32,000 bases of DNA from Synechococcus sp. A15-24 (lineage in GTDB: Bacteria > Cyanobacteriota > Cyanobacteriia > PCC-6307 > Cyanobiaceae), in assembly GCF_014280195.1 (NCBI RefSeq), contig NZ_CP047960.1, positions 870,001 through 902,000 of the forward strand. Direction: 5' to 3'. Below are positions 4,019 to 32,000 of the stretch, in pieces. Made by a program: the position numbers and the translations under genes. Under the pieces are notes generated by a model, which saw nothing but the letters and a program-made list of their open reading frames with translations, was not told the DNA's origin and did not search any database. The stretch's first letter is position 1; every line of letters begins with the position of its first letter.

Positions 4019-4068
4019 GGGATCCAGTGGGATCTCCTTAGAGTCTGGTGCTGTTCTGGGCGCTGGCG

Positions 4069-5718: not shown

Positions 5719-5763
5719 TCAGTTGCCGCTAGGGTCGCGACTTTCAAGCCATCTGAGGCGTCG

Positions 5764-6183
5764 ATGCCCGAGGAAATCACCGCTGAACAGCTAGAGATGC
5801 TGTTGCAGATGGCCGTGCTGCCCCAGCCTCCTTACCTGATGGCTGGTGTGGGGCTGTTGATGGGTGTGTTGTGCGGGTTGACCTTTGGCCGTCAGGTGCA
5901 GGACAAGCTCGATGGCTGGAAGCAGGATCGTCTTCCGCTTCTGCCTCTGGCCACAGCGGAGATCAGCCTCAGCTTCACCGGCATCCTGATAGGGATCACC
6001 CTGTTCATCGGCTGCTGCCTGCAGATCTTCGGCTTCGCCGCCGGTGCGGCGCTCCTGGTGGCGTTGTTGCTGTCGCTGCTGACGGGTGGTGCTCTCTTCG
6101 CTCAGCTGGAGCGATTGATGCTGCAGGTGGAAAGCGGCAACTTCAAGGCCGTTGATTTCGACAACTTCGACGAGTTCTTCTGA
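5764..6183 (+). CDS. small integral membrane protein, unknown function
   Basis: 139-aa ORF with three hydrophobic spans and an acidic C-terminus (DFDNFDEFF). Codon bias is host-like. The long antisense ORF 5791-6918 is judged spurious. Confidence 0.6.
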   Translation: MPEEITAEQLEMLLQMAVLPQPPYLMAGVGLLMGVLCGLTFGRQVQDKLDGWKQDRLPLLPLATAEISLSFTGILIGITLFIGCCLQIFGFAAGAALLVALLLSLLTGGALFAQLERLMLQVESGNFKAVDFDNFDEFF

Positions 6184-8125: not shown

Positions 8126-8862
8126 CCCGGCAGCGGCTGCAGAAACTGATCGCCGCAGCTGGACTGTGCTCGCGGCGGACCGCTGAAGCCTGGATCGAGG
8201 CAGGCCGGGTAAATGTGGACGGCCAGGTCGCAAGCCTTGGCGATCAGGCGGACCCTGACAGCCAGGTCATCCAGGTTGATGGCAGGCCGTTGTGTCCCCG
8301 TCGGGAGCCCACTGTGCTGCTGATCAACAAGCCACCTGGTGTGATCAGCACCTGCCGCGACCCCCGCGGGCGGTCCACGGTTCTGGATCTGCTGCCGCGG
8401 CAGCTGCGCCAGGGACTCCACCCGGTTGGGCGTCTGGATGCCGATAGCCGAGGCGCTCTCCTGTTGACGGACCAGGGTGAGCTGACGTTGCGGTTGACCC
8501 ATCCCCGCTTTGACCATGCCAAGACCTATCGGGTCTGGGTGGACGGGACGCCGCTGAACACCAGCCTGCAGCGCTGGCGGCAAGGGGTCTCGCTGGACGG
8601 CACACGCACAAGATCGGCCGAGGTTCGCGTGCTGCAGCGTCGCTCCGAACGCACACTGCTCGAGGTTGTTCTGCTGGAGGGCCGCAACCGTCAGATTCGC
8701 CGGGTTGCGGACCTGCTGGGCCATCCGGTTCTCGATTTGCAGCGGGTGGCCATCGCCGGTCTGCGCCTGGGGCCGCTGCCGGAAGGTCGCTGGCGCCATC
8801 TGAGCAGGGGAGAATGGCAGCAATTGCTTGACCAGGGCGAGCCCAACGGACCATGCGCCTGA
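8122..8862 (+). CDS. rRNA pseudouridine synthase, RsuA/RluB family with S4 domain
   Basis: S4 domain (RLQKLIAAAGLCSRRTAEAWIEAGRVNVDG) and catalytic motif HPVGRLDADSRGALLLTD. The GTG start overlaps the kinase stop (GTGA). Confidence 0.85.
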   Translation: MTRQRLQKLIAAAGLCSRRTAEAWIEAGRVNVDGQVASLGDQADPDSQVIQVDGRPLCPRREPTVLLINKPPGVISTCRDPRGRSTVLDLLPRQLRQGLHPVGRLDADSRGALLLTDQGELTLRLTHPRFDHAKTYRVWVDGTPLNTSLQRWRQGVSLDGTRTRSAEVRVLQRRSERTLLEVVLLEGRNRQIRRVADLLGHPVLDLQRVAIAGLRLGPLPEGRWRHLSRGEWQQLLDQGEPNGPCA

Positions 8863-9773
8863 CGTTCCAACGCCCCTGGCGGCGTCGCTCCCGTTCCTCC
8901 CAGGAGGTGGCTCCTGATGGGCTCACGCGCGAGGAACAGCTGCGTGAGCTGGGTCAGCTGCTGACGCAACGTCGTGAGGCTGAAGGGTTGACTTTGCGGG
9001 GGCTGGCCCAGGAGACCCGGATCACCACTCCGGTGATTGAGGCTCTCGAGCGCGGCTGGTCCGATCGCCTGCCGGAGCGTGCATACCTGGCGTCGATGCT
9101 GCCGCAGCTGGAGCGTCGGCTGGCGTTGACGCCGGGGGTGCTGCAGCCGGTTCTACCGCCTGCTGTGATCCGCCAGCGTCAGGTGAATCTGACGCAGCGC
9201 CGCTTCACGCTGGGCAGCATTGATGTATTCACCACCTGGCAGGGAGGTGTTGTTTATGCGGTGTTGATCGGCATCAGCCTGCTGATGATCAACCGGCAGC
9301 AGCAGAACCTCGCCCTGCGCAACAGCCAGAGTCTTGAGCCGGTGCGCGCTGACCTGAGCGGCCTGGATCAGGCCACATCTCTGCCCTCCAACGACCCTGA
9401 TCTCAAAGCCCTGCGGCCGCTGGATCTGGCCCGCCAACGGCAGCCACTGGACTGGTTGAACGCTGCCGGTGGACCGCCACTGCCCCGCCCAGGCGTGCTC
9501 AGCCTCAAGTTGACGCAGCCGCGTCAGCTTCAATTGGCCAGCGGCGGCGGTGACCGACTGCAGCTGCAACTCGAGGCCGGCACGGCAACCCTGCAGTTGC
9601 TGGCACCAGTGCAGGTGGTGATCAAACCGCCGCCGGAGAAGGCTGATCAGTTGCTATGGAATGGTCAGGTTCTCACAGGCGACAAGAGCCGACCTGGCAC
9701 CTACCGGGTCGAAGCCACCAGGGCGGCAGCTCCCGCTCCACTGCGGCCCCAGACAGCTCCCCGTTCTCCGTAA
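8853..9773 (+). CDS. helix-turn-helix, RodZ-like membrane protein
   Basis: HTH (LTLRGLAQETRITTPVIEALERGW), then a single TM span (GGVVYAVLIGISLLMI) and a C-terminal extracytoplasmic region, which is the RodZ architecture. The 3' end overlaps convergent malQ by 73 nt. Confidence 0.6.
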   Translation: MRLTFQRPWRRRSRSSQEVAPDGLTREEQLRELGQLLTQRREAEGLTLRGLAQETRITTPVIEALERGWSDRLPERAYLASMLPQLERRLALTPGVLQPVLPPAVIRQRQVNLTQRRFTLGSIDVFTTWQGGVVYAVLIGISLLMINRQQQNLALRNSQSLEPVRADLSGLDQATSLPSNDPDLKALRPLDLARQRQPLDWLNAAGGPPLPRPGVLSLKLTQPRQLQLASGGGDRLQLQLEAGTATLQLLAPVQVVIKPPPEKADQLLWNGQVLTGDKSRPGTYRVEATRAAAPAPLRPQTAPRSP

Positions 9774-11257
9774 CCCTTCAGGGCTCCATTCAGATCCTCG
9801 TCGAACCGCGGCAACCGCCAGCTCCAGTTGCCTTCGCTGGTCCCTGGAGTGTTGAAGCGGGCGCTGTCGTCCAGATGCAGCAGATCCTGCAGCGGAGCCA
9901 TCACCAGTTCCGCTGGGGTGGCAAAGGCCATATCGAACAGATGCCAGGCCGGAGCCTCAACAGGCCCGTTGACCCGACTGGCGATGCGCTGCTTACTCGC
10001 ATCATCGAGTTTGTTCCACCAGCCCAGAGTGGTGGGGTTATCATGGGTACCAGTGTAAACCACCCAGCTGCTGCCTTGGATGTTTTCGGGCAGATAGGGG
10101 TTGTCCTGCATGCCATCGAAGGCGAACTGCAGCACCTTCATCCCCGGCAGCCGGAAGCCATCCCTGAGGGCTTCCACATCGGGAGTGATCACCCCAAGGT
10201 CTTCAGCGATCAAGGGCAGGGCACCGCCACCATCCCGCTGCAGCTTGCTCAGCAGGGACCGACCGGGAGAAGGCTGCCAGCTGCCGTTCTGCGCTGTGGT
10301 GTCGCCGCCTGGCACGGCCCAGTAGCCGGCAAGGGCGCGGAAGTGGTCGAGCCGAAGCAGATCCGCCAATTGCCGCTGCCGGGCGATGCGATGCCTCCAC
10401 CAACCGAAGCGGGTGAGTCGGTGACGGCCCCAGCGGTACACCGGGGATCCCCACAGCTGTCCCGTCTCGGAAAAGTAATCGGGGGGAACACCGCTTTGGG
10501 TGGTGAGTTCGCCGTTCTCCTTGATGGTGAACAGGGCGCGGTGGCTCCAGACATCGGCACTGTCGGCGCTCACATAAAAGGGCAGATCGCCGAAGACCAG
10601 CACCCCGCGCTCCTTTGCCAGCGTTCGGATGGCCTGCCATTGGCGGTCCAGGTGCCACTGGACCAACTTCACCTGCAGCAACGCCTCGCCGTGGCCGTCG
10701 CACCAGCGTTGAAGCGCTCTCTCCCGATGCGTCGCCAGGGGTGCGGGCCAGCTCCACCAGGCGTCCTGGTGTTGATCATGCAGAACGCTGTAACGGGCGT
10801 GGTCCTCCAGCCAGGCCTGTACTTCGCACCAGGAGCGGAAGGCTTCCTGGCGCTCCTGGTTCTGACTGGGCCAGCGGCTCAACAGGGCCGTGGCCAGCGC
10901 CTGACTGCGTTGGTTGGCCAGCGCAAAATCCACCCTGTCAACGCCTTCAGAGGCGGCGTCGGCGCCGGGGAGCGTTTCCTGGTCCTCGCCGCTGATGAAC
11001 CCTTCCGCCGTCAGATCCGCTGCATCCAGCAGCCAGGGGTTCAGCGCAAAACAGGAAGGTGAGCTGTACGGGGAGCCGGTGGGATCCGGAGGTGCCAGCG
11101 GCAGGATCTGCCAGACCCCGATGTTGTTGTCCGCCAGTTGATGAACCCAGCGGCGGCAGGGTTCGCCGAAGCTGCCGCAGACCGGGCTGCCGGGGAGCGC
11201 GGTGGGATGGAGCAGAACCCCTGTGCTGCGAGGACGCGGTGCTGTGGGCTGATCCAT
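9701..11257 (-). CDS. malQ: 4-alpha-glucanotransferase (amylomaltase)
   Basis: GVLLHPTALPG...GVWQILPL N-terminus, LRLDHFRAL, LIAEDLGVITPDVEALR and YTGTHDNPT are GH77 signatures. Confidence 0.9.
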   Translation of the reverse strand: MDQPTAPRPRSTGVLLHPTALPGSPVCGSFGEPCRRWVHQLADNNIGVWQILPLAPPDPTGSPYSSPSCFALNPWLLDAADLTAEGFISGEDQETLPGADAASEGVDRVDFALANQRSQALATALLSRWPSQNQERQEAFRSWCEVQAWLEDHARYSVLHDQHQDAWWSWPAPLATHRERALQRWCDGHGEALLQVKLVQWHLDRQWQAIRTLAKERGVLVFGDLPFYVSADSADVWSHRALFTIKENGELTTQSGVPPDYFSETGQLWGSPVYRWGRHRLTRFGWWRHRIARQRQLADLLRLDHFRALAGYWAVPGGDTTAQNGSWQPSPGRSLLSKLQRDGGGALPLIAEDLGVITPDVEALRDGFRLPGMKVLQFAFDGMQDNPYLPENIQGSSWVVYTGTHDNPTTLGWWNKLDDASKQRIASRVNGPVEAPAWHLFDMAFATPAELVMAPLQDLLHLDDSARFNTPGTSEGNWSWRLPRFDEDLNGALKGYGERGAVWGRSGAGAAALVASTR

Positions 11258-17836: not shown

Positions 17837-18757
17837 ATGGCGCGTCCTGCGCTTTCGGTCAAGGGTCTGGCGGTCGCCCTGGGCATTGTCTCGGGTTGTT
17901 CAGTCTCGGCGCAGGCGGCCCAGCCAAGCGTTGTGGCTGTGGATGGAACCCTGTGTGACATCACCCGAACGGTGGTGGGAGCGGCGGCGAAGGTCACCTG
18001 CCTGATCCCGCCGGGTGGTGATCCCCACGGCTATCGCCTCAAGCCCAGCGACCGGAAGGCCATCGCAACGTCGGCAGCAGTGGTTCACATCGGCTTTGGT
18101 CTCACCCCTGCAGCCGATGAGATCACCAGTCCTGGGTCTGTCGTGGCCGTTGGCGAACAGGCATTGCCGAATTACACGGGAAGCGACCCCCATGTCTGGC
18201 ATGACCCGGCCAACTCGGCCGCCATGGTGTCGGCACTGAGCTCTGCTCTGATTCCTGTCCTGCCCGCATCGGAAACAGAAGGTTTTAAAGAACGCGCGAC
18301 GGTAGCCATTGCTGTGTTTAACGACCTCAGCCGTTGGGGAGCCATTCAGTTTGAAAAGCTGCCTCAACCGCAGCGGGTGATCGTCACCGATCACAAGACC
18401 TACAGCCACTTGGCCGATCGCTACGGGGTGGATGAAATTGCCATGCTTGATAGCTACACCACTGGGGGTGTGCTGCGTCCCTCCAGCCTGCGCAGGATCA
18501 GCAAGGAGATCAAAGCTTCAGGCGCAAAGGTGATTTTCACGCCGTCGATTCCTCCGAGCAAAACGCTGCGCAGGATCAGCAGATCAACCGGATTGCCAAT
18601 TGCGCCCACACCACTAGTTGGTGAGGGAACAGCTGCCGGAGAAACAGCGATCTCCACGGCGACGATCAACATCTGCACGATGGTGCAAGGGCAGGGCGGG
18701 ACCTGTGATAAGGCCTCTGCTGAGGCCCTGAATGATCGTTGGCAGGCCATTCGTTAA
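17837..18757 (+). CDS. znuA: metal ABC transporter substrate-binding lipoprotein (TroA/ZnuA cluster-9 family)
   Basis: Lipobox LGIVSGC, metal-ligand motifs GGDPHGY and SDPHVWHDP, and VTDHKTYSHL. Start taken at ATG 17837; the track start at 17768 would put the operator inside the CDS. Metal specificity (Zn vs Mn) is not proven. Confidence 0.8.
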   Translation: MARPALSVKGLAVALGIVSGCSVSAQAAQPSVVAVDGTLCDITRTVVGAAAKVTCLIPPGGDPHGYRLKPSDRKAIATSAAVVHIGFGLTPAADEITSPGSVVAVGEQALPNYTGSDPHVWHDPANSAAMVSALSSALIPVLPASETEGFKERATVAIAVFNDLSRWGAIQFEKLPQPQRVIVTDHKTYSHLADRYGVDEIAMLDSYTTGGVLRPSSLRRISKEIKASGAKVIFTPSIPPSKTLRRISRSTGLPIAPTPLVGEGTAAGETAISTATINICTMVQGQGGTCDKASAEALNDRWQAIR

Positions 18758-18769
18758 TGCCTGCTTGAC

Positions 18770-19912
18770 GTGCAGACGTCCAAGCATCCTCAATCTTTTC
18801 TCCTCTCCCTCAACATTTTCTCTCCCGTGTTCGTCTTCTCAACCAAGCCACGTCTCAGATTCCTGCTTTTAGCCCTGCTTCTGCTCCCTTGCACTGCAGC
18901 CCGGCCTGTCATGGCCCATGGATCCCATGGGGGAGGAGATGAGGAACTTGAGGCTGGTGAGTTTGATTTCACTCCTCTGATTACCATCGAAGGGCATGGT
19001 GGGTTTGAAACCAACTTGGATGATAACCCCAAGCATTACGCCATTGATGGATTGTTTGGTGGCGTGTTCCAGTGGGGCTTGGGCAACGGCGGAAGTCTCA
19101 CGATTGAAGCCGCTGTGGGACCTTCAGTGGTGTGGGGTGAGGCTGAACATTTTTACGGGAAGGTGCATGTTGATGATGATCATGGCCATAGGGATGAGGA
19201 CCATCACGACCACGACGAGCATGCTGATAATGACCACGACGAGCATGCTGAGGATGATCATCACGACCACGACGAGCATGCTGATAATGACCACGACGAG
19301 CATGCTGAGGATGATCATCATGAGCACGCAGAGCATGCCCACGATGAACACGGGCATGGTGATCCTGAGCTGAAACGAACGGACGTTCGTGGTTTCCTTA
19401 GTGTGCGCTATGCACCCAATGATCGCCTCAGCCTCACGGTGGATTGGATGCCCTATTACGTCACCGAGGATCAAGGTGACGATATCCAGGGTTTAAAGAA
19501 TGAGTTAGGTGCTAAAGTGGTTTGGGCGCTTGGTGATGGTGACGTTGACTTCGCTTTGGGTGATGGTCTTGAGAGCATTCTCGAGGGCATTTTCCTCTCC
19601 GTGATGCACCGTCAGGGTTGGGAATCCGATGGCACCTGGATGGGCAACTACACCGATCCCCGCCTGGGCGTTGGCTTCAACATTGACCAGATCAATGTCA
19701 TCATCGATGCCGGGCCTCGTTTCTACACACCTGGCAGCTATTCAGGTTTGAGTCAGCGGACTGACTTTGCCGGTGAAGTGGAAGTCTCTATCCCCGTTGG
19801 CGATGCCGTTCTGTTCGCCCATTGGAAGCCGACCTACAGCCCGGATGATGCTCCTGGCTGGGGTGAGGGATGGCAGCACCACCTCGGCACGGGGGTGACC
19901 TTCAGCTTCTGA
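18770..19912 (+). CDS. secreted His/Asp/Glu-rich protein, possible outer-membrane beta-barrel
   Basis: Signal peptide (RLRFLLLALLLLPCTAARPVMA; alternative GTG start at 18827). About 65 aa of HD/HE repeats (HGHRDEDHHDHDEHADNDHDEHAEDD...). Alternating-hydrophobic strands and a C-terminal ...GTGVTFSF ending in Phe. Confidence 0.75.
   Translation: MQTSKHPQSFLLSLNIFSPVFVFSTKPRLRFLLLALLLLPCTAARPVMAHGSHGGGDEELEAGEFDFTPLITIEGHGGFETNLDDNPKHYAIDGLFGGVFQWGLGNGGSLTIEAAVGPSVVWGEAEHFYGKVHVDDDHGHRDEDHHDHDEHADNDHDEHAEDDHHDHDEHADNDHDEHAEDDHHEHAEHAHDEHGHGDPELKRTDVRGFLSVRYAPNDRLSLTVDWMPYYVTEDQGDDIQGLKNELGAKVVWALGDGDVDFALGDGLESILEGIFLSVMHRQGWESDGTWMGNYTDPRLGVGFNIDQINVIIDAGPRFYTPGSYSGLSQRTDFAGEVEVSIPVGDAVLFAHWKPTYSPDDAPGWGEGWQHHLGTGVTFSF
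19202..19315 (+). repeat. perfect 57-bp x2 in-frame tandem duplication inside the His-rich gene
   Basis: 19202-19258 is identical to 19259-19315 (CATCACGACCACGACGAGCATGCTGATAATGACCACGACGAGCATGCTGAGGATGAT). The 20-nt core GACCACGACGAGCATGCTGA occurs 4 times (19208, 19232, 19265, 19289). Confidence 0.95.
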
Positions 19913-21235
19913 TCAGCCCGCCGGCAGCCAGCGGGCCTCCTTGATCGGTTCGTCCATCACTTCCCTCAATCGGAGAGTGTCGGCCTCAATCAGGGCGGCT
20001 CGCCCGCCCTTCAGATCGGGTTGGGTCAACGTCATCAACAGATCGTTGCCAACGGAGTTGTGCTCCACCCCTGTTCCTGGCCTCAGGGTCCAGGGGGCCA
20101 GATTTCGCCGTTGAAGGACTGTGCCTTCGCTGTTGAACTGCACCATTTCATGCTGGCTGCGTTGGCCCTGCCAGATCCCCAACACCGCCCAGATCCGATC
20201 GCCGGAGCCATTGCAGCTCACCGCCAGCACGGCCTGGTCTCCGAGGTGGAGTTGTCGCGGGGCCAGGCCAGGGATCACCAGTTCGATGGAGCGGCGGTAG
20301 TCCGGCCAATGGCGGATCAGCACCGCTCGGCCTGACGTGGCGCAGAAGGCCCCAAGCTCACGGCTGCCCGGCAGCACTTGGGGAGCCTTGCCGTTGTCCT
20401 TGAGCGGCTGGATGCTGATGCCGTCGTAGCCCGGCACCACCAGGCCGCCGCCGGCTGGCAGCAACTGCACCGGTCCGGAGGAGGGCAGCTCCAGCATCTG
20501 TCGCTCGCCATTGGCCAGCAGCAGCTCAAGGGTTTCACTGCCCGGTTTCAATCCGCCGGTCTGCACCAGCAGATCGCCATTGAGGTTGCTGCTGATGTGT
20601 CCAAACAGCAGATCGCCCTCACTCAGTGGTTCCAGAACGCCTTGGGCGGGTACTCCCAGCTGCTGTTTCGATAGGGCAATGTTGCGAGGGGTGAGCCGTT
20701 TGCGCCAGATCGTCTCCTTTCCATTGCCGTTACTGCTCACCATGGCGACACCGCTGCCGTTGCCGAGGGGAACCAGGCTCTGCAGTGAGGCCCAGACAGG
20801 GCTGAGGGGATGCCACTGGCCTTGCCGGTCCTGCAGCTGCAGCTGCTCACCGCCCTCCACATGCCGCGTCACCAGCAACCACGGGCGTGGATCCCACCAT
20901 CGCGTCTGAGGCGTCATCGGTTGCATGCGCTGGTCACGGCCCGCCATCGTCAGTGCGATGGGGGCATCGATGGGCGTTATCCCTCCGAGGATCAACCGCA
21001 GTCGGTTGCCTTGGCCTAGCCAGCGATGGGGTAGTGCAGGGTCAAGGCTGCTTTCCGCCGCCAGGTTGTTGCGGTGCATCGCGCGGCTGAAGCTCAGGTC
21101 CACCGCCGCTCGGCCAGACTGCAGCGGCTGTGGTTCGACGCCAAGCAGCCGCGGGGCCCGTCGCAGCAGCAGCTGTTGCTGGAGGACCACGGTCGCAGCA
21201 GCCAACAGCAGCAGCAGCGTCAGCCTGCGCGTCAT
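19913..21235 (-). CDS. secreted/anchored hypothetical protein (N-terminal Ig-like segment, then repeat/beta-rich region)
   Basis: N-terminal hydrophobic anchor LTLLLLLAAATVVL. 440 aa with host-like codon bias. Its start overlaps the upstream gene by 4 nt, so it is probably the last gene of the permease operon. Confidence 0.65.
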   Translation of the reverse strand: MTRRLTLLLLLAAATVVLQQQLLLRRAPRLLGVEPQPLQSGRAAVDLSFSRAMHRNNLAAESSLDPALPHRWLGQGNRLRLILGGITPIDAPIALTMAGRDQRMQPMTPQTRWWDPRPWLLVTRHVEGGEQLQLQDRQGQWHPLSPVWASLQSLVPLGNGSGVAMVSSNGNGKETIWRKRLTPRNIALSKQQLGVPAQGVLEPLSEGDLLFGHISSNLNGDLLVQTGGLKPGSETLELLLANGERQMLELPSSGPVQLLPAGGGLVVPGYDGISIQPLKDNGKAPQVLPGSRELGAFCATSGRAVLIRHWPDYRRSIELVIPGLAPRQLHLGDQAVLAVSCNGSGDRIWAVLGIWQGQRSQHEMVQFNSEGTVLQRRNLAPWTLRPGTGVEHNSVGNDLLMTLTQPDLKGGRAALIEADTLRLREVMDEPIKEARWLPAG

Positions 21236-23627: not shown

Positions 23628-24341
23628 GTGAACATCCTGCTGCTGCGTCCAGGGGACAACTGGCTTGATGCGAGCACGGTGCAGATCACTGATCACAGGG
23701 CTGATCACCTCCGTCAAGTGTTGCGATCAGCCGTGGGGGAGTCGATCCGGGTCGGCGTTGTGGGGGGTCAGCGGGGTGATGCACGGATCGAAGCGATCGA
23801 TGCCACCGGCGTGACCCTGAGGGTGGCCCTCGGCGAACCGCCCCCGCCACGGCACCGATTTGACATCGTGCTGGCTCTGCCGCGCCCGAAGATGCTGCGC
23901 CGGATCCTGCGCACCGTGGCGGAATACGGGGTCTGCAACCTCCACCTGATCAACACTGCCCGGGTGGAGAAGAGCTTCTGGCAAACCCCGCTTCTGTCGA
24001 CTGACAAGGTGGAGGAGGCCCTGATGGCAGGGATGGAACGAGCCCAAGACACCGTAGCGCCGGTGGTCCATCAGCACCGGTTGTTTCGCCCGTTTGTGGA
24101 GGATCAACTGTCGACGATCTGCGCCGGTCGCCCCTGCTGGCTGGCGGAGATGGGATCAGCCCTGGCCCTTTCAGCGACCCCCGCCGTACCGGCGGTGGTG
24201 ATGATCGGTCCGGAGGGGGGCTTTGTTCCCTTCGAATTGGAGTTGGCCAAGGTGGTGATCGCGCAGCCGGTGCATCTGGGCACTCGGGTGCTCAGCGTGG
24301 ATACGGCATTGACGGCCGCATTGGCGCTGGGTTGGGGATGA
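23628..24341 (+). CDS. rsmE: 16S rRNA (uracil1498-N3)-methyltransferase
   Basis: PUA-like N-terminus (HRADHLRQVLR), LALPRPKMLRRILRTVAEYGV, and the SPOUT knot IGPEGGF...E near the C-terminus. Confidence 0.8.
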   Translation: MNILLLRPGDNWLDASTVQITDHRADHLRQVLRSAVGESIRVGVVGGQRGDARIEAIDATGVTLRVALGEPPPPRHRFDIVLALPRPKMLRRILRTVAEYGVCNLHLINTARVEKSFWQTPLLSTDKVEEALMAGMERAQDTVAPVVHQHRLFRPFVEDQLSTICAGRPCWLAEMGSALALSATPAVPAVVMIGPEGGFVPFELELAKVVIAQPVHLGTRVLSVDTALTAALALGWG

Positions 24342-24685
24342 TGGATGGCAACGTCAACACTGCATCGATGGGTGAGATGAACGACCAGGCCGGACTGGAG
24401 GCATTGGTGGCAGATCTGGGCAGCGGCAATGTGATCGATGCCGAGCTGCTGGAGGGTTGTTCGGTGGAGGCCCATGAGCTGGATGAGATGGGACCTGAGG
24501 AGGCGGCCCAGGTCGCTGCCCACTGTTTTGCCACCTTGTTTGGCCACACCGTGGAGTCCGCACAAGGCAGCGAGGCCGATGCGGATGCAGGCCGCTGGGC
24601 CGGAACGCTGGACGGCTTTGGGTTTGTGATCCGCCGGGATGACCTGGGGGATTTGGTGTTGGACTTCAGCGGGCCGGCGTCCTGA
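24332..24685 (+). CDS. acidic hypothetical protein
   Basis: 117-aa ORF overlapping the rsmE stop. Host-like codon bias and no motif I can name. Confidence 0.45.
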   Translation: MGMMDGNVNTASMGEMNDQAGLEALVADLGSGNVIDAELLEGCSVEAHELDEMGPEEAAQVAAHCFATLFGHTVESAQGSEADADAGRWAGTLDGFGFVIRRDDLGDLVLDFSGPAS

Positions 24686-24947
24686 TCAGCAGCAAGAGTC
24701 CGGAGATGGTCACCACGACGGTGAGCCCCCCGAGGATCACCGAATAGATCGGCTGCAGGTTGATCGGCCCGAAGTCTCCGGTGTGGATCTTCAGCAGCCA
24801 AAAGGCATCGATGTCCTGCTCCAGCAGCAGGCTGTAAAGGGAACCGGTTCCAGCCGTCAGCAGCAGCGGTGCTGCAGCGATCGGCACCAGCCTGCGGTGC
24901 AGGCGTCGAGCCTGGCGCTGTTGATTGCGGTTGGGCTGCCTCGTCAT
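24666..24947 (-). CDS. small two-TM membrane protein
   Basis: 93-aa ORF with a basic N-terminus and two hydrophobic spans. Overlaps the upstream gene by 4 nt. Confidence 0.5.
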   Translation of the reverse strand: MTRQPNRNQQRQARRLHRRLVPIAAAPLLLTAGTGSLYSLLLEQDIDAFWLLKIHTGDFGPINLQPIYSVILGGLTVVVTISGLLLLIRTPAR

Positions 24948-25153
24948 TGCTTGCGCATCTGCTGATGCAATTCCCTTTCATCGGAGCAGGGCATCCAACG
25001 ACCGTTGTTCTGGTGAACCGTGGAGCAACCGATCTCCACCGCGCGGCTCATGGCCTCGGCTTGGCTGTCGTACATCCCCTTGCGATGGGCCTGAGCCCAA
25101 CCGCTGTGGAGAAGGGATGTGCCAAGGAGTGCGAAGAGAGCGAAACGATGCAT
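24944..25153 (-). CDS. small secreted DUF3721-like protein
   Basis: Signal peptide MHRFALFALLGTSLLHSGWAQA, then GCSTVHQNNGRWMPC. This matches the GC..H....WMPC motif of DUF3721, common in marine picocyanobacteria and cyanophages (recalled from memory). Confidence 0.6.
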   Translation of the reverse strand: MHRFALFALLGTSLLHSGWAQAHRKGMYDSQAEAMSRAVEIGCSTVHQNNGRWMPCSDERELHQQMRKQ

Positions 25154-25169
25154 CGAACCGGACCCTGGA

Positions 25170-25427
25170 TCAACGGCCTTCGCAATGTTGAAAGGCCTTG
25201 AGCTCGTTCATTCTGCCGGGCCCCTGCTGGCTGCCGGGATTGATGGCATCACGCATCTGGATCTGCGCATCGACGCAACGGTTGAAGCGCTGATGTCTGA
25301 CCGCCTGAGGAATGAGCAGCATGGCCATGGTGAACAGGCTCAAGCTGCTGACGGCAGCCAGCACGGGGTAGGCGTGGGCTCGCACCATCTCCCGGGCGGA
25401 GAGGGTCTTGTCGTTGTGGTCGGTCAT
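25170..25427 (-). CDS. small membrane protein, unknown function
   Basis: Start preferred at ATG 25427 (MTDHNDKTLSAREMV...). One TM span (YPVLAAVSSLSLFTMAMLLI). Last host-like gene before the repeat-bounded region. Confidence 0.45.
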   Translation of the reverse strand: MTDHNDKTLSAREMVRAHAYPVLAAVSSLSLFTMAMLLIPQAVRHQRFNRCVDAQIQMRDAINPGSQQGPGRMNELKAFQHCEGR

Positions 25428-25462
25428 GACCTGGCACCTTGCTTGGTCATTCTGGAGTGATG

Positions 25463-25680
25463 TCGATGGAGCCTTGCGTGGCCGGTAGCTTGTGGAGCCG
25501 ATCCGAGCCCAGGGCCACACGCCACTTGGTGAGCCAATCCCGTTCTGCGAATCCAGCTGACCAGCGCTGGGGTTTCTGGCCGCTGCTGCCGCTCACTTTT
25601 TAGTTGTAGGAACCAGTCTGAGGTGCTTGTCCCTGAGTTGTCCCTCATTTTTTGTGCAACTGGGCTGGATTGTGGGCAAG
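25463..25680 (+). repeat. island junction repeat, copy A
   Basis: Shares a perfect 29-mer CAGCGCTGGGGTTTCTGGCCGCTGCTGCC (25562-25590 = 29814-29842) and 16-mer TTTTGTGCAACTGGGC (25650-25665 = 29902-29917) with copy C, plus weaker flanking similarity. Carries an extra insert of about 50 nt relative to C. Confidence 0.8.
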
Positions 25681-25745
25681 TGAGGGGTGTGTTTATTGGT
25701 TTGAGGGTTGGTTGCTGAAGCAGGTTTGTGTTTTGTGTTGTCAGA

Positions 25746-25928
25746 TCAGATGAGATCGGGCTGATAGTTGATGAGATCGTCGCGATTGATGTTGAGGAGC
25801 GTGGTTTTGATGTTTTGGTCTGAGTCTTTGAGCACGAGCAGGTCGGCGGCCAGGGCGGCAGCGGGCTGATGCACCCGGTAATGCTGATCACTGCTGCTAC
25901 CGAAGCTGCCGATCAAAACAATGCGCAT
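25746..25928 (-). pseudogene. truncated gene remnant (only about 60 codons, N-terminal MRIVLIGSFGSS...)
   Basis: The ORF looks like the N-terminus of a larger Rossmann or glycosyltransferase-like protein but stops after 60 aa, next to repeat copy A. Confidence 0.3.
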
Positions 25929-26109
25929 GGTGCTCAGCTACGGGTGGCGTTGATCACTGTTTGCAGTGGTGCAGGCCAGCCGGTTTCGATTGGGCTTGAG
26001 CCGTTGGACCTCTCGTTGGGCGTGTCTAATGACGGCGTCAACAGCCTCGATGTCGCAACCCAGCGCAAGGATGGTGCTGGCTTGAGTCGGGATGCGCTCA
26101 AGGGGGGGG

Positions 26110-26325
26110 CAGTGCGTGAAGGCACTTCTCGCGGCTCAAAGACACTCTGATGCCAATCAGCAGAAGCGCCTGCCCGCGATCCATTCCTCATCAGAATCAC
26201 TGCATCGACAGTGAGCGTTGTAGCTGGAGCAGGTTTGAATCCTGCCGATCAACGCTAATGATTCTCGGCGTTGCTTCTGATTAATAGTGTTCGCTAATAG
26301 ATAGCTTGAGATTCTTGTGCCTGAT
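26110..26325 (+). repeat. island junction repeat, copy B (most diverged)
   Basis: Perfect 17-mer CAGAATCACTGCATCGA (26192-26208 = 29756-29772). Alignable with copy C through GCTGGAGC.GGT.TGAATCCTGC..ATCA.CGCT and, with gaps, to about 26325. Confidence 0.7.
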
Positions 26326-26624
26326 GTGTTTCTGTTGTTCTGTGTGTCTGTTCAAATCATGATAAAGCTCGACAGGATGGCCTTCTATGAGTTTGCGACT
26401 CTCTTGAGCTGAAAAGGAAACTAAGGGTTGTACAGCAAAGTATGCTTTTCTTGGGCGCAAGTTGATATTTTGGATTCAAACAAATAATGCCTTTCAGCTT
26501 TTCCACTCTCTGTGAATCTTATAACAAATGCCAAGCACGGCTTTGCGGGCAGCCAGTGGCTTCGGCAAAAACAAGCATTACCAATACCGTTTCTTCTAGC
26601 TTTGTAAGGAGAAATGGCCAACAC

Positions 26625-27341
26625 ATGTCTTCAGGCTGGATATCGATGCCACGTGATCGGCAGCCTGAGGTCATGGACCAACCTGGTCTCGATCCTGCTG
26701 AGCATGTCCGAGCCCTTCAAGGTCTTCGACGGATTAATGCCATCAGTCGTTGTGTACCAGGCCTTTTGCGTTATTTAGAGAAGCTCGCTAGCGAAAGTCC
26801 CACGACTCAGTTGAGCGTGTTGGAGCTGGCTTGCGGAGGTGGTGATACGGCAATTGAGCTTGATGCGCTCGCTCGAAGACGTCACCTCAACATCTCGTTT
26901 CAAGCTTGTGACCTGAACCCTGAAGCTGTGCGGATCGCGCGCCGCAATGTTGCCAGATCAGAAAGTGGTGTTGGTGTGTTTGTTGAGGATGCTCTTGAAC
27001 CGTCTGGATCCAAGCAATTTGATGTGGTGTATTGCACACTTTTTGTTCACCATCTCGATCCACCCGATGTGGTGCGACTACTCAAAGGGATGGCAGCTAG
27101 GGCTCGTCGACTTGTGATTGTTGACGATCTGATTAGGAGCCGTCTTGGGTATTCCTTGGCTTGGATGGGTACGCGACTGCTGAGCCGATCTTGGGTGGTT
27201 CATCACGATGGACCTGTGTCAGTCAAGGGGGCTTACACCCCCACGGAGATTTTGGATCTCGCCTCTCGAGCCGGTTTGCGTGACTGTGTTCTGGAACGGA
27301 GCTGGCCAGAGCGCTACCGGCTCTGCTGGACACCCCACTGA
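26625..27341 (+). CDS. class I SAM-dependent methyltransferase
   Basis: Motif I VLELACGGGD, acidic loop ACDLNPEAV, and post-I/II motifs (FDVVYCTLFVHHL). Start preferred at ATG 26625 (MSSGWISMPRD...). Stop TGA 27339-27341 lies 1 nt before the next ATG. Confidence 0.85.
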   Translation: MSSGWISMPRDRQPEVMDQPGLDPAEHVRALQGLRRINAISRCVPGLLRYLEKLASESPTTQLSVLELACGGGDTAIELDALARRRHLNISFQACDLNPEAVRIARRNVARSESGVGVFVEDALEPSGSKQFDVVYCTLFVHHLDPPDVVRLLKGMAARARRLVIVDDLIRSRLGYSLAWMGTRLLSRSWVVHHDGPVSVKGAYTPTEILDLASRAGLRDCVLERSWPERYRLCWTPH

Positions 27342-27342
27342 C

Positions 27343-28488
27343 ATGCGAAGCAATTGGGATGTCATCGTGATTGGGGCAGGAGTTGCCGGAGGCTTGGCAG
27401 CCTTCGATTGTGCAAATCGCGGCCTGCGAGTTCTGGTGGTTGAGAAACGGTCCTTCCCCCGCTGGAAGGTGTGTGGTTGCTGCTTTAACGCCAATTCTCT
27501 GGCATCACTGAGTGCCACAGGCCTCCCGAACCTCATGCACGATCAAGGTGCTGTGCCTCTCGATCAACTTCGTCTTGGTTGGGGTGGTAAGTCGCTCAAG
27601 CTTGGTTTGCCAGGCGGTTTGGCTTTGTCAAGGGAGCGCTTTGATCAGGCTTTGGTCAACGCCGCTGAGGGTGCTGGCGCAACATTGCGCTTTCGAACCA
27701 GTGCCGTGCTTGAGGAGATGACTCCTGAAGGTCGAATGGTGCGGTTACGTCCTCCCAGTGGTGCTCCAGTGGAACGTATCAGTGGCCGTGTCGTACTGGT
27801 CGCAGCCGGCTTAGAGCACCAGGTGATTTCTCCATCTCATGCGGCCAGTTCCAAAAGCACCCCGGAATCGAGGCTTGGTGCGGGTTGCCTCATCGCCGAT
27901 GACGACGGAACTTACGAGTCTGGGACCATTCATATGGCCATTGGCCAGCATGGCTACGTCGGCTTGGTTCGCCGTGAAGATGGTGCTCTGAACTTGGCTG
28001 CTGCTTTCGACCGCGCTGTGGTCAAGTCTTCCGGCGGTGTGGCGCGTGCGGCACAACTTGTTCTGACTCAAGCCGGCTTCGCCTTGCCTCGATCTTTGGA
28101 GTCGTCTCGCTGGCAATTAACCCCCGCACTGACCCGTCGTGCCGGTGCGTTTGCAGGGCATCGCTTTTTGTTGCTCGGCGATGCGACAGGTTACGTGGAG
28201 CCTTTTACCGGTGAGGGAATGGCCTGGGCTCTTGCTGCGGGTGCGTCGGTTGCTCCCTTTGTTGAGGAAGCTCAGGGGGAATGGACAGTGGATCTGGAGC
28301 GGCGTTGGCGAAGAAGGCTGGTGGATCTGACGATCAGTCGTCAGCGCGTGTGCAGTGTGTTGTCGACTGTGTTGAGACAACCGCTCACCACAACCGCATT
28401 GTTCAGCCTCGGGTCTCAATGGCCTGCTGTACCGCAACGCATTATCAGCAGCCTCAATCGCGTGCATCCCCTAATGGCGAGGTCTTAA
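27343..28488 (+). CDS. FAD-dependent oxidoreductase, geranylgeranyl-reductase/flavin-monooxygenase fold
   Basis: DVIVIGAGVAGGLAAFDCANRGLRVLVVEK (GxGxxG + E), FPRWKVCG, and LLLGDATGYVEPFTGEGMAWAL (GD motif). Start at ATG 27343 rather than the track start at 27208. Confidence 0.85.
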   Translation: MRSNWDVIVIGAGVAGGLAAFDCANRGLRVLVVEKRSFPRWKVCGCCFNANSLASLSATGLPNLMHDQGAVPLDQLRLGWGGKSLKLGLPGGLALSRERFDQALVNAAEGAGATLRFRTSAVLEEMTPEGRMVRLRPPSGAPVERISGRVVLVAAGLEHQVISPSHAASSKSTPESRLGAGCLIADDDGTYESGTIHMAIGQHGYVGLVRREDGALNLAAAFDRAVVKSSGGVARAAQLVLTQAGFALPRSLESSRWQLTPALTRRAGAFAGHRFLLLGDATGYVEPFTGEGMAWALAAGASVAPFVEEAQGEWTVDLERRWRRRLVDLTISRQRVCSVLSTVLRQPLTTTALFSLGSQWPAVPQRIISSLNRVHPLMARS

Positions 28489-28491
28489 TCC

Positions 28492-29586
28492 ATGCCTCTC
28501 ATCCTTCACGGAATGGGTACGGCAGTACCAACTCAGCGATTGAGCCAGGCAGAAGCGGTGCAAGTGGCGCATCGCATCAATGCAGAAAGTCCTGAGCATT
28601 CAAGGCTGATGTCGCGCATCTATCAGAAAACCAAGGTTCTCACCCGTGGAAGTGTGCTCCTCGAGAATGATGGTCTCAATGGCACGAGCACGACCAAGGA
28701 TCGTCTCAGTTTCTACGGCTCAGAAAGCCCTGGGACGGCACGACGGATGCATGCTTATAACACTCACGCCGGTGGGTTGTCTCTTGAGGCTGCTACGAAG
28801 GCGCTATCTGATGGTGATATCTCATCAGGGGCGATCACCCACCTCATCACGGTCAGTTGTACTGGGTTTCATTCACCTGGTATTGACCTTTTCTTGATTG
28901 AAAAGCTTGATCTATCGCCGAGTGTTCAGAGGACACACATCGGATTCATGGGATGCCACGCTGCGCTGAATGGCTTGCGTGTTGCCCATGCCTTCGCGGA
29001 AATGGATCCAAAGGCGGTTGTTTTGGTTTGTGCTGTTGAGCTTTGTAGCCTCCATATGGCTTATGGCTGGCACCCAGAGAAGGTCGTTGCCAATGCTTTG
29101 TTTGCTGATGGGGCGGCTGCTGTTGTCGCCTCCTCGGATCCTTCCCTTTCTGATCAATCCTTGGTCTTGCGCCGCAGTGGCTCAACAGTGATTCCTGATA
29201 GTGCAGATCTGATGCAATGGGAGATTGGCGACCATGGTTTTGCGATGGGGTTGTCTCCCCTTGTTCCGGAAACGGTTGGTGCTGCCTTGTTGCCTTGGTT
29301 GCGAGATTGGCTCAAGGATCAGTCGATTGATCTTGAGGCGGTGACGAGCTGGGCTGTGCATCCTGGCGGACCCAGAATTCTCTCCACCTGTGCAGAGGTT
29401 TTGTCGTTGGACCCAGGCCTACTGCACGAATCCAGAGGCATACTTCAGGATCACGGCAACATGTCATCCGCAACGATCCTGTTCATTCTTGATCGATTGC
29501 GTCGGCGGTCAACTACTGGTCCTTGTCTTGCACTGGCCTTTGGCCCTGGGCTGAGTGCTGAGGTTGCACTTTTTGATTTTGAATAA
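28492..29586 (+). CDS. type III polyketide synthase (chalcone/stilbene synthase superfamily)
   Basis: Cys-His-Asn triad contexts are all present: ITVSCTGFHSPG, WAVHPGGPRIL, DHGNMSSATILFIL. Also C-terminal AFGPGL. ATG lies 3 nt after the upstream stop. Confidence 0.92.
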   Translation: MPLILHGMGTAVPTQRLSQAEAVQVAHRINAESPEHSRLMSRIYQKTKVLTRGSVLLENDGLNGTSTTKDRLSFYGSESPGTARRMHAYNTHAGGLSLEAATKALSDGDISSGAITHLITVSCTGFHSPGIDLFLIEKLDLSPSVQRTHIGFMGCHAALNGLRVAHAFAEMDPKAVVLVCAVELCSLHMAYGWHPEKVVANALFADGAAAVVASSDPSLSDQSLVLRRSGSTVIPDSADLMQWEIGDHGFAMGLSPLVPETVGAALLPWLRDWLKDQSIDLEAVTSWAVHPGGPRILSTCAEVLSLDPGLLHESRGILQDHGNMSSATILFILDRLRRRSTTGPCLALAFGPGLSAEVALFDFE

Positions 29587-29702
29587 CAGTCAATATTCGT
29601 TTTGCCTGTTTCACTGCCTGGGGAATTATCATCGCATCTGTACATATCTCTGATCGGATGATGTTGCTCGGCGATGTCACACTTGGGTGTCCCCAGAGGC
29701 GT

Positions 29703-29933
29703 CAGTGGCGTGAATCTTTTCAGTGATTTTGCTCTGCCTTGCCCCTTTCCTTCGACAGAATCACTGCATCGATGGGGAGTGTGGTGGCTGGAGCTGGTGT
29801 GAATCCTGCTCATCAGCGCTGGGGTTTCTGGCCGCTGCTGCCACTCGGTTTCATGTTGCAAGAATAGGTCGAAGCTGCTTGTCCTTGAGTCGTCTCTGGA
29901 ATTTTGTGCAACTGGGCAGGATGGGGTGCAACG
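29703..29933 (+). repeat. island junction repeat, copy C (contains both the A-like and B-like parts)
   Basis: See copies A and B. Copy C is the only one that matches both of the others along its full length. Confidence 0.8.
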
Positions 29934-30028
29934 ACAACCATCTCCTTACCTGAAAAATTCCTCCGGATTGAAAACGTGAATCTCGGGAAGCAGCAGAGTT
30001 TCTTGCATGGACTGAGAAGGAAGCCGCG

Positions 30029-30463
30029 TTAAAGCATTTCAGGACGCAATCTGCTGGGCCGATAAGAGATCAGGAAGGCCTGTTGGCCGGCAGCCTCTGA
30101 TTTCACGGCAGTGATCAGGTCTTCACCGGTGTTCCAGACCCAGACCTGGTCGTTATGGCTGTCGTGGTCGAGGCTGGTGCTTAGCGGTGGCCCATGTTGA
30201 GCGCGCAGGCCTGCAAGCACCTCTGTCATGTCATCAATGGCGAACTCGTAAGCCAGCTTCGTCAGCCCTTGTTCTGGGTCGACTTCAAACGTGGCCTGTG
30301 AAACGGGGAGTCGATCCAGAAACACATCTCTCTTGATGTAGCAACCGTCCTGCTCTTCGTTCAGGGCTTGGCCTTGACCCAGATGGATCGCCACTTGCTC
30401 GAACGGCATGCCCCATGCCAGCCCTTCGACGCAGGCGTCCACCCTGCCAGCGCTGCAGAACAA
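30029..30463 (-). CDS. hypothetical protein (orphan cargo)
   Basis: 144-aa ORF from a TTG start; an internal ATG gives MPFEQVAIHLG... No motif I can name. Sits alone between repeat copy C and the motif array. Confidence 0.45.
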   Translation of the reverse strand: MFCSAGRVDACVEGLAWGMPFEQVAIHLGQGQALNEEQDGCYIKRDVFLDRLPVSQATFEVDPEQGLTKLAYEFAIDDMTEVLAGLRAQHGPPLSTSLDHDSHNDQVWVWNTGEDLITAVKSEAAGQQAFLISYRPSRLRPEML

Positions 30464-30725
30464 AAGCAGCCCTACTTACGCCGTGATCAGAAGGTTCTGG
30501 AGTTGGTGCAGCACCTTCATGCGGCGATCAATCACTGTTCAGATTTTGTTGGTTCGTAGGGCCGTTGCCTACTGCCTTTTGAGGACAAGCCCCTTAACAA
30601 GTTCAATGTTGTGACGCCGCAGTTTGAGCAGTCTTGAAGCCCTTTAGCCCAGTTGAGGCTCGCCAGGCATCTAGGTGCACCTAAGCGAGGGTCTTCCTGG
30701 TCAGTTTCCCTATACCCCCCGCCAG

Positions 30726-30943
30726 TTGTCCCAGGGTGGGGTTTTTGAGTGCCTGACTGGGATTTACCCTGGGACAACCCATTTTTTTCAGAGGAGTTGT
30801 CCCAGGGTAGATGGGTACACCTATCTGTCTCAGAAGCGCCTGGGACATTTTCCGTCAATTCAGCCGATTGTCCCAGGGTTGTCCCAGGGTTGTCCCAGGC
30901 CTACTTCCCTTGCAACGACTGGATTTAACCCTACCTGGGACAA
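30726..30943. repeat. array of 8 copies of the 11-bp motif TTGTCCCAGGG in both orientations (iteron/operator-like)
   Basis: Forward copies at 30726, 30797, 30868, 30879 and 30890 (the last is 10/11). Reverse copies (CCCTGGGACAA) at 30767, 30838 (9/11) and 30933 (10/11). A partial copy, TTGTCCCGG, is at 31003. Three copies are head-to-tail with an 11-bp period (30868-30900). Confidence 0.9.
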
Positions 30944-31078
30944 AAATAATTCTCTGTCTCCCCGCGAGGCAGTCACGGCCCAATAAACCAAATTTCCGAG
31001 CCTTGTCCCGGTCGGTTCGGAATCGATCAAACCCTTCGCCTTAAGCCGCTGGAGCGATTTCCTGACCGCCGCGTCCAC
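30860..31078 (-). pseudogene. possible truncated winged-helix DNA-binding ORF whose 3' end runs into the motif array
   Basis: GTG-initiated 72 codons, VDAAVRKSLQRLKAKGLIDSEPTG..., resembling the recognition helix and wing of MarR/Rep-type wHTH. The frame is open for about 115 nt upstream with no start codon, suggesting a 5'-truncated remnant. The last 13 codons are encoded by the triple 11-bp repeat. Confidence 0.3.
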
Positions 31079-31377
31079 TTTCGGCCTACGGTTAGTGACT
31101 CCACCTCCTCGCGCCTCAGAGGCCCTTCTGCACGCAATAGAGCCCGCTCCTCTTGTGCGCTTCGATGTTTTGCAGATGTTGACCCGAGGGTTTAGCGCTG
31201 TTCAACATCTTTGGATCCCTGCAGGTGGCTTTCTGTTTGTTTAATAATTGATCTTGTTATGATGATTGCATCGATTTTTTGCATTGCTTGTGCTTCGAGT
31301 TGAGGTTGATGTTTAACTAATGTTGATTACCTCTTCCCTTGAAGCTTATTTGATACGGCCTTAACTGTAGAAAGCAA

Positions 31378-31749
31378 ATGACCTCACCTGTGATTGACGA
31401 TTTTTGTGTGGAAGATCTAAATGATGGGATCTATTCACTTAAGACTACCGAAATGTCTTCTGCTTGCTCAGTTGATAATGTGTCTGAGCTCGAGGAACTG
31501 GTGAGTCGAGAGTATAAGAATATTTGTTCTACATTGTGTTTAGATGACGATGGCGATCGACTCTTGCTGAAAGCTAAATGCTTAGCGCATGTTCAATTGC
31601 TTGGAGCTTTTTTTCATAATTACCAAAAATATTTATACAAGTCTTATGATCACGAGATGGCAAAGCATTTGTATGCTGATTGGTCTCGTCTAGGTATAGC
31701 ATTTAACGTAATTGCAAATGTTCAGAATTCCAGGTTGGGTGATGGTTGA
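31378..31749 (+). CDS. hypothetical protein in an AT-rich cassette
   Basis: 123-aa ORF with AT-rich codon usage unlike the host. No recognisable motif. Confidence 0.5.
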   Translation: MTSPVIDDFCVEDLNDGIYSLKTTEMSSACSVDNVSELEELVSREYKNICSTLCLDDDGDRLLLKAKCLAHVQLLGAFFHNYQKYLYKSYDHEMAKHLYADWSRLGIAFNVIANVQNSRLGDG

Positions 31750-31948
31750 GCCTACATTGTTTAGTATGTATGTATAAATGTTGGAATTACTCGATGACCG
31801 CTTTTGTTATGACATGATCAGCAGCAACGCTGGTCTGTTTCTCCCGGTACGGAGTGGCACAGGCTTAAGAATTTCTTTGCGTGGGGTTTCGTTTTTTGCC
31901 TCTTTGCGCTTTCAGTAGTTGCTAATAATATTCAGCTCTAGCAATTCA

Positions 31949-32000
31949 ATGGCATCGACGTCTAAATCATGGATGCGTACCCGTGAACTTGCTGAATATC
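31949..32000 (+). CDS. start of an ORF cut by the window end; possible excisionase/AlpA-type HTH
   Basis: ATGGCATCGACG... translates MASTSKSWMRTRELAEY. The TRELAEY segment resembles the first helix of MerR/excisionase-type HTH domains. Only 17 codons are visible. Confidence 0.2.
   Translation, partial: MASTSKSWMRTRELAEY

Follow-up and report, generated by a model that had tools for sequence, protein, structure and literature searches.

We studied a 32,000-nucleotide (nt) stretch of the Synechococcus sp. A15-24 genome (contig NZ_CP047960.1, positions 870,001 to 902,000), called the window below, which contains three direct copies (A, B and C) of a repeat unit of ~200 nt. We consider it likely that these repeats are the attachment (att) junctions of an array of non-autonomous cassettes, whose insertion target is a 14-bp core in the DUF4336 gene's 5' coding end and whose mode of entry is site-specific recombination. 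The unit consists of a left arm (P), the core TGGCCGCTGCTGCC and a right arm (P'). The cassettes have their limits at a single 14-bp core, P and P' arms combine independently of each other, and each of the four att forms is found. The geometry of the junctions suggests a dedicated site-specific recombinase acting in trans. The loci and contigs compared with the window are labelled with L-numbers.

All three copies lie on the + strand in the accessory region of the window. B, C and one WH7803 copy were combined into a unit profile, and an nhmmer search of the 32 kb with it placed A at 25547-25679 (E 1e-29), B at 26171-26350 (E 5e-50) and C at 29735-29935 (E 2e-62), and no fourth unit was found above noise. 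An exact 29-mer, CAGCGCTGGGGTTTCTGGCCGCTGCTGCC, is common to A (25562-25590) and C (29814-29842), with none expected from shuffled sequences. A and C also share the exact 16-mer TTTTGTGCAACTGGGC (25650-25665 and 29902-29917), and B and C share the exact 17-mer CAGAATCACTGCATCGA (26192-26208 and 29756-29772). An earlier reading of the letters alone (the sequence-only reading) had reported three direct same-strand copies with these perfect matches, B as the most decayed copy, gene remnants between A and B, and a polyketide synthase (PKS) operon between B and C. Our results agree with all of this, and the core of B is mutated at 5 of its 14 positions (26265-26278). The same reading had A matching C from end to end with an extra insert of ~50 nt, which proved wrong: A covers only unit positions 64-196, its similarity to B and C starts at ~25547, and 25463-25546 belongs to a different left arm. 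The unit had also been drawn too narrowly, as B and C share ~35 further bases on the left and the right limit is at ~29950. Open reading frames (ORFs) over the units (e.g. 29723-29953) are not kept in length and frame between copies, which rules out a small cysteine-rich peptide gene. The G+C content is 62-68% in the left 24 kb of the window (core DNA) versus 43-58% from ~25.5 kb on. We note a second, smaller dip at 18001-20000 (0.54-0.58 versus 0.62-0.68 around it), inside the core-like left part, which could be another small acquired segment.

Weaker unit matches in RCC307 and other genomes coincide with the start of a real gene, which encodes DUF4336 (Pfam PF14234, E 1e-111 in RCC307). The ~200-nt unit aligns over its full length with the DUF4336 region from ~-50 to +150, that is, the upstream sequence and the first ~50 codons. 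The core encodes W-P-L-L-P of DUF4336, the 29-mer encodes Q-R-W-G-F-W-P-L-L-P, and a string that looks like a tRNA T arm, GGTTTGAATCCTGCC, encodes G-V-N-P-A of the DUF4336 N-terminus. The P arm contains the promoter/upstream region and N-terminal codons of DUF4336, and in many copies also a relic of the chrA 3' end. This relic comprises the last 10-25 chrA codons (...WRQPAWRVVLFCAGVGGLTLA and stop; e.g. L114 10500-10700 and L046 20380-20470), which implies a native chrA-DUF4336 junction as the source of the att unit. An intact chrA is found in L114 and L137, where it is itself a cassette. Past W-P-L-L-P, the P' arm has a net 4-nt deletion compared with real DUF4336 genes and is frameshifted, with stop codons.

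The best-conserved positions of the unit are the core and two near-invariant motif blocks of 20 and 14 nt in the P' arm. Block 1, CTTGTCCCTGAGTTGTCCCTGG, holds two 9-mers 11 nt apart (the TTGTCCCTG pair), and block 2 is TTTTGTGCAACTGG, with a second GTGCAACT ~20 nt further on. These motifs are direct repeats and are non-coding yet strongly conserved, which suggests protein binding of the arm-site kind. We therefore propose that the TTGTCCCTG pair, with its 11-nt spacing, and the GTGCAACT pair are putative arm-type protein-binding sites. For such a lambda-like layout of core and arms, a serine recombinase would be as possible as a tyrosine recombinase. The core is exact in 40 of the 62 non-redundant copies that we gathered from metagenomes and strains WH8102, WH7803 and NOUM97013, and it has two exact matches in the window, with 0.05 expected. 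We also note that a phage-like IMG/VR contig with a head-maturation protease (L133) contains an exact P' 21-mer, TTGTCCCTGAGTTGTCCCTGG, within its own cluster of 9-mer repeats of this kind (539-593).

A metagenome scan with the P' motif returned 43 loci with more than 60 copies, mostly in same-orientation arrays, and arrays were also found in WH7803, WH8102, NOUM97013 and a 325-kb contig. The 60+ recovered copies all belong to arrays that keep one orientation and are linked to DUF4336 5' ends. In marine Synechococcus, DUF4336 belongs to the core genes, and an intact DUF4336 closes the array in five loci. In WH8102, NOUM97013 and two long contigs, this right end is followed by DUF760, lepB, menD and menB. 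Of the 116 DUF4336 protein clusters sampled, 39 (about a third) had the hotspot. Successive units are ~0.7-9.5 kb apart, and the cargo between them includes the hid PKS genes, chrA, GST, RND efflux, Nramp, DUF1611, radical-SAM clusters and DUF305/DUF411. Cassettes of identical sequence recur in different surroundings. Near rsmE of WH7803, an orthologue of the window gene at 25170-25427 is followed first by a truncated unit and then by a cassette and a full unit, the latter with 80% identity to C.

To test the junctions, we grouped the flanks into clusters and compared copies with one flank in common. The DUF1611 cassette was found behind six different left contexts. From the core rightwards, identity between the six is 100%; to the left of the core, these contexts are unrelated or 68-92% identical and diverge at once. 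At its right end, the cassette is 100% identical in three contexts through the last base of the core and divergent beyond it. Positions 25845-29846 of the window match WH8102 along 4004 nt with 86% identity, as far as the core and no further; positions 26178-29916 are 94.5% identical to the metagenome contig L139. Window copy C, the L139 copy and the terminal copy of WH8102 show ~97% identity as far as the core extends; past it, C continues into a P' arm of type 1, L139 into a P' arm of type 2, and WH8102 into the intact gene. In every informative comparison, the switch is located exactly at the core.

The four att forms can be told apart by their arms. The attB form consists of a DUF305-side arm, the core and the gene (L139), the attL form of this same arm, the core and P' (L097), the attR form of P, the core and the gene (L118, L094 and WH8102), and the attP-like form of P, the core and P'. 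Among non-redundant pairs, 10 combine P arms at least 96% identical with P' arms below 88%, and one shows the reverse; the two halves of the P' arm are concordant in 16 pairs and discordant in one. The N-terminal and post-core types of the 116 DUF4336 protein clusters occur in all four combinations (27/12/10/26), and the DUF4336 proteins of WH8102 and A15-24 have a common body and different N-termini.

These junctions are consistent with a cassette of the form core, P' arm, cargo, P arm, core. On insertion, the P arm would bring the DUF4336 upstream region and the first ~27 codons, so that an expressible DUF4336 is rebuilt at the right end, and the old 5' end, now displaced, would remain on the left side joined to the non-coding P' arm. 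Further rounds of insertion would then produce an array that runs from a left arm-core-P' junction through cargo, P-core-P', more cargo and so on to P-core-DUF4336. Since no integrase was found in any array examined, the cassettes look non-autonomous.

Several observations weigh against this interpretation. The case for site-specific catalysis comes from junction geometry, and no recombinase was found. No excised circle or free attP was found, and the unit has no match in IMG/VR, GenBank phages or PLSDB plasmids. The core is mutated in 22 of the 62 non-redundant copies. The non-P left arms share only the core region, and their junctions cannot separate a site-specific from a homology-driven crossover. 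In addition, the array in the lineage of the window does not end in DUF4336, as judged beyond position 32000 from L142 only. A different explanation needs no dedicated recombinase: the units would be duplicates of the chrA-DUF4336 junction, and cassettes would be shuffled by general homologous recombination between these repeats of ~200-300 nt, as could happen when foreign DNA is taken up. It would fit the homology of the whole unit, and not of the core alone, to the native locus, as well as the lack of an integrase in or beside any array examined, and crossovers would be forced into the core region wherever a non-P left arm shares nothing else. However, the exact shared stretch is 14 bp, well below the usual requirement of RecA-type recombination, and every switch of P versus P' is at the core. 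Only one of 17 near-identical pairs has discordant P' halves, despite the near-invariant blocks of 20 and 14 nt, and that the non-coding P' motifs stay strongly conserved in arms that have otherwise diverged speaks for recognition by a protein. We consider shuffling by homologous recombination unlikely.

The sequence-only reading had taken the repeats for tandem att scars of repeated insertion at one site, as in tRNA-targeting islands and tycheposon-like elements. The tandem scars are supported by the junctions at the 14-bp core; the tRNA/tycheposon-type target is not, as the site is the 5' coding end of DUF4336 and no tRNA is involved. Picocyanobacterial islands are typically tRNA-linked (bioRxiv 10.1101/2020.12.28.424599; PMC8995045), and copy B contains a T-arm-like string (GCAGG TTTGAAT CCTGC), but this string is coding sequence of the DUF4336 N-terminus. 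ARAGORN found no tRNA or tmRNA in the window, as the earlier reading had stated for a complete tRNA, in the equivalent position of 30 related rsmE loci (of 80 collected around the neighbouring rsmE), or in six array loci. Rfam gave nothing at gathering thresholds and nothing relevant (no tRNA or tmRNA) at E = 10, and no tyrosine recombinase was found in the arrays examined. These negative results and the DUF4336 coding match refute a tRNA or tmRNA as the target site, and scars of tycheposon-type elements derived from one appear highly improbable. A single tRNA-Cys was called downstream of rsmE in one more distant metagenome-assembled genome (L060). Small-RNA genes or mobile promoter/leader modules had been offered as another possibility; such units might be retained for driving the downstream cassette. 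For a promoter/leader, the anatomy alone holds: the P arm comprises DUF4336 upstream sequence, the start codon and leader codons, P-core-P' copies would express a peptide of ~35 amino acids (aa) and could read into the cargo, and several cassettes (hid, chrA, GST and RND) are co-oriented with the unit. Yet many first cargo genes are on the opposite strand, a simple scan found no sigma-70-like promoter in the units, and the core-precise mosaic would be left unexplained. The small-RNA idea fails on the absence of any Rfam family and of a conserved structure in the units (fold z-scores -1.3 to 0; alifold -3.65 kcal/mol without compensatory pairs), and we regard the whole proposal as very unlikely. 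A generic dispersed repeat, such as a miniature inverted-repeat transposable element or a repetitive extragenic palindromic element, would account for the multiplicity and nothing beyond. The unit has no terminal inverted repeats, it keeps one orientation per locus at cassette boundaries tied to DUF4336, and its three copies in 32 kb are all in the accessory region, so such a repeat has almost no chance of being the answer.

A recombinase for the proposed site-specific insertion was searched for in several places. No integrase was found among ~110 representative array ORFs, either among the Pfam family matches listed or by motif search, or in the +/-10-kb flanks of four loci with intact DUF4336 (WH8102, NOUM97013, L137 and L139). 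Scans of viral, phage, plasmid and metagenome sequences returned no integrase-bearing parent element. A viral, phage or plasmid source of the unit was rejected, as pattern scans of IMG/VR gave only chance 17-mers and blastn against phages and plasmids gave nothing. Rare autonomous members that carry an integrase are possible.

Two candidate enzymes were also rejected. Large serine recombinases (598-619 aa) with a DUF3854 protein are located in L104 (5796-10716) and L129-L132 beside a truncated mutY 5' fragment (...PYG(I/V)W(V/I)AEVM). The L104 enzyme (8726-10585) was the sole serine recombinase found in the search of the arrays. It is not a candidate for the DUF4336 site, because its family is always beside the mutY 5' fragment and the DUF3854 gene and thus targets mutY. 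This family looks like a separate integrative element at the mutY 5' end, with metal-resistance cargo (RND/CzcB, DUF305, DUF411 and MerR). In L118, the IstA/IstB pair (3872-6149; IstA with a Mu-transposase C domain) is an IS21-type insertion, within a cassette of 8 kb that has a truncated unit on one side and the intact DUF4336 on the other, and was not accepted as the array recombinase.

The features of the accessory part of the window are as follows, from left to right.

24678-24947, minus strand: PepSY_TM-like gene (Pfam).
24944-25153, minus strand: DUF3721 gene (Pfam).
25170-25427, minus strand: gene for an 85-aa membrane protein, left of copy A.
25428-25576, plus strand: left arm of A, not of the P type; an alternative DUF4336 N-terminus with its ATG at 25467 (MEPCVAGSLW...SANPADQRWGF).
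25577-25590, plus strand: core of A, TGGCCGCTGCTGCC, exact by motif match.
25591-25700, plus strand: P' arm of A, a frameshifted relic of DUF4336 codons with the CTTGTCCCTGAGTTGTCCCT and TTTTGTGCAACTGGG motifs.
25701-26170, minus strand: gene remnants, with an RTX/cadherin-type 3' end and small ORFs at 25746-25928 and 25934-26200.
26171-26350, plus strand: copy B, a dead P-core-P' site with the core equivalent TCGGCGTTGCTTCT at 26265-26278 (5 of 14 mismatched).
[quoted passage not shown]
29700-29828, plus strand: P arm of C, with the DUF4336 upstream region (CAGAATCACTGCAT...), the start codon at 29772 (ATGGGGAG) and ~19 N-terminal codons.
29829-29842, plus strand: core of C, TGGCCGCTGCTGCC, exact; collinearity with WH8102 and L139 stops here.
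29843-29950, plus strand: P' arm of C, of a type different from the L139 P' arm.
30029-30463, minus strand: 144-aa ORF after C, matching no known family.
30726-32000, no strand assigned: decayed small module after C, made up of the four features below.
30726-30943: TTGTCCCAGG cluster with seven copies, of which three are in tandem every 11 nt and two are inverted.
~30950-31190, minus strand: frameshifted winged-helix gene.
31378-31749: 123-aa ORF.
31950: start of an HTH_17 (excisionase-type) ORF.

In terms of the proposed mechanism, A would be an attL-type junction with an alternative N-terminal arm, the core and P'; B would be a mutated, dead internal site; and C would be a P-core-P' junction from a further insertion behind the hid cassette. 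As B is dead, the live cores of A and C would now enclose a single composite cassette that includes both the remnant genes and the hid operon. The same dead copy of B is found upstream of the PKS operon in WH8102 and L139, equally decayed, suggesting that B died before the transfers. In other copies, the sequence upstream of the DUF4336 region of the P arm is the chrA 3' end relic.

The minus-strand genes at 24678-25427 are either a chromosomal flank or an older cassette that has lost its left att site. Their orthologues adjoin the truncated unit in WH7803, the PepSY-like and DUF3721 pair has units on both sides in L137, and the pair is just upstream of the intact DUF4336 in L139. On the minus strand of 24292-25153, the frame of third-codon-position G+C changes three times over ~900 nt. 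This signal is resolved as separate short genes (PepSY_TM-like and DUF3721) rather than one frameshifted gene, and the listed ORF at 24292-24981 is probably not real as a whole. A deletion has joined the RTX/cadherin-type remnant after A to sequence that, from 25845 rightwards, is collinear with WH8102. The intact gene (545 aa in L099) is found right after copy A in near-identical environmental contigs (L125, L099 and L001). Between L125 and the window, rsmE is 96% and the small gene 94% identical. With the gene intact in one and a remnant in the other, this junction varies between very close strains.

The hidA-hidB-hidC order is that of hierridin-like clusters (PMC8086630). The hid proteins of the window are 84-85% identical to those of WH8102 and only 58-63% identical to those of WH7803, whereas the core gene rsmE reaches only 62-70% identity with any subcluster 5.1 genome, which indicates horizontal transfer of the cassette. 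We note that in WH7803 (L046 12192-15192) and WH8017 (L064 12228-15168) the hid operon is directly downstream of rsmE, with the same 58-63% identity to the window proteins, and no att units were detected around it there. The same operon thus occupies two different variable spots of one neighbourhood. A cassette hotspot explains the patchy, horizontally transferred distribution of the hid cluster.

To the right of C, the 144-aa ORF is either cargo or chromosomal flank, and its homologues adjoin rsmE in two other genomes. The genes after C have no relatives among the viral contigs searched. The decayed module is found intact in L141 (8962-10740), directly after a P' arm. It encodes three proteins: a winged-helix protein of 199 aa (weak Replic_Relax hit, E 0.1), one of 113-123 aa that belongs to no known family, and an HTH_17 excisionase-type protein of 66 aa (E 8e-6). 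This module may be the remnant of a helper element; no integrase was seen by it before the contigs end. The TTGTCCCAGG repeat resembles the TTGTCCCTG pair of every P' arm, with nearly the same 9-mer at the same 11-nt spacing. The cluster at 30726-30943 is suggestive of recombinase iterons, though in L142 (581-789) the cluster lies inside the C-terminal coding part of a winged-helix ORF. L142 is 87% identical to window positions 30149-32000 and has a truncated xis-like ORF, followed ~250 nt on by an rmuC-like core gene. As L142 shows no terminal DUF4336, a deletion or relocation must be assumed for this lineage, and its array was probably truncated or relocated.

How marine picocyanobacteria acquire flexible genes is a long-standing question, as, to our knowledge, they mostly have no plasmids, prophages or known competence systems. 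Tycheposons explained the tRNA-linked islands, and the DUF4336 site would be a second kind of hotspot, defined to the base. It is present in the model strains WH8102 and WH7803, and its cargo is ecologically relevant, including hierridin-type PKS, chromate/metal transporters and Nramp. We tentatively suggest an integron-like system at the DUF4336 5' end, in which recombinase-less cassettes carry ~200-nt att units derived from the target, and the recombinase is encoded elsewhere (on the chromosome, a rare helper element or a phage) and perhaps recognises the P' repeats. Such a system might be a second, tRNA-independent mechanism of island building. The exact core and arm motifs make it directly testable. 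Full-text searches, which did not cover subscription journals, found no paper with both 'DUF4336' and 'Synechococcus', nor with both 'integron-like' and 'picocyanobacteria'.

Among known systems, the arrays can be compared with the cis-mobilizable elements (CIMEs) and accretion arrays of ICESt1-related islands at fda in Streptococcus thermophilus, which are likewise bounded by attL and attR, lack integration genes and give composite units once an internal site decays (PMC5704250). Here, too, the att-bounded segments are without integration genes and have their core in common with the target gene. CIMEs are decayed integrative and conjugative or mobilizable elements with a known cognate integrase, whereas no integrase-bearing parent was found here, the cassettes are small (~0.7-9.5 kb between units), and the target is a 5' end instead of a 3' end. 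We also know of no conjugation system in the marine cyanobacterial host.

Insertion of an SXT/R391 element replaces the promoter and N-terminal codons of its target, leaving a hybrid functional gene, and tandem arrays can form at the same site. The target, the 5' end of prfC, is likewise the 5' end of a conserved protein-coding gene (PMC4542580). SXT is a self-transmissible element of 79-110 kb with its own lambda-family integrase and Xis, both of which the cassettes here lack.

Prochlorococcus tycheposons and the tycheposon-like insertions of Synechococcus are also found in marine picocyanobacteria, carry 2-10 kb of adaptive cargo and insert successively at one site, with partial target copies in between, many of them degenerate (bioRxiv 10.1101/2020.12.28.424599; PMC8995045). 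They are defined by tRNA/tmRNA att sites together with tyrosine-recombinase and replication modules (same references). Small adaptive cargo at a fixed island-seeding site is found here as well; the repeat is the DUF4336 5' end and not a tRNA or tmRNA, and no tyrosine recombinase of its own was seen in the array ORFs (among the matches listed) or in the flanks (Pfam). Known cyanophage att sites are in tRNA-Leu.

Integron arrays are similar in form, with same-orientation series of short, mostly one- to few-gene cassettes that lack a recombinase and each end in a recombination site, and with the same cassette at different positions in different arrays. In contrast to integrons, no intI is present within 10 kb of the arrays in WH8102, NOUM97013, L137 and L139, and the unit has no attC-like hairpin (z-scores and alifold energy as above, no covariation). 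Moreover, the site is ~200 nt and derived from the target gene, and insertion would rebuild this gene rather than place a cassette behind a Pc promoter. The system therefore lacks the defining features of tycheposons (tRNA site and own recombinase) and of integrons (intI and attC hairpin). By analogy, it is closest to CIME/accretion arrays and SXT/R391 in its proposed working, to tycheposons in its ecology, and to integron arrays in its form.

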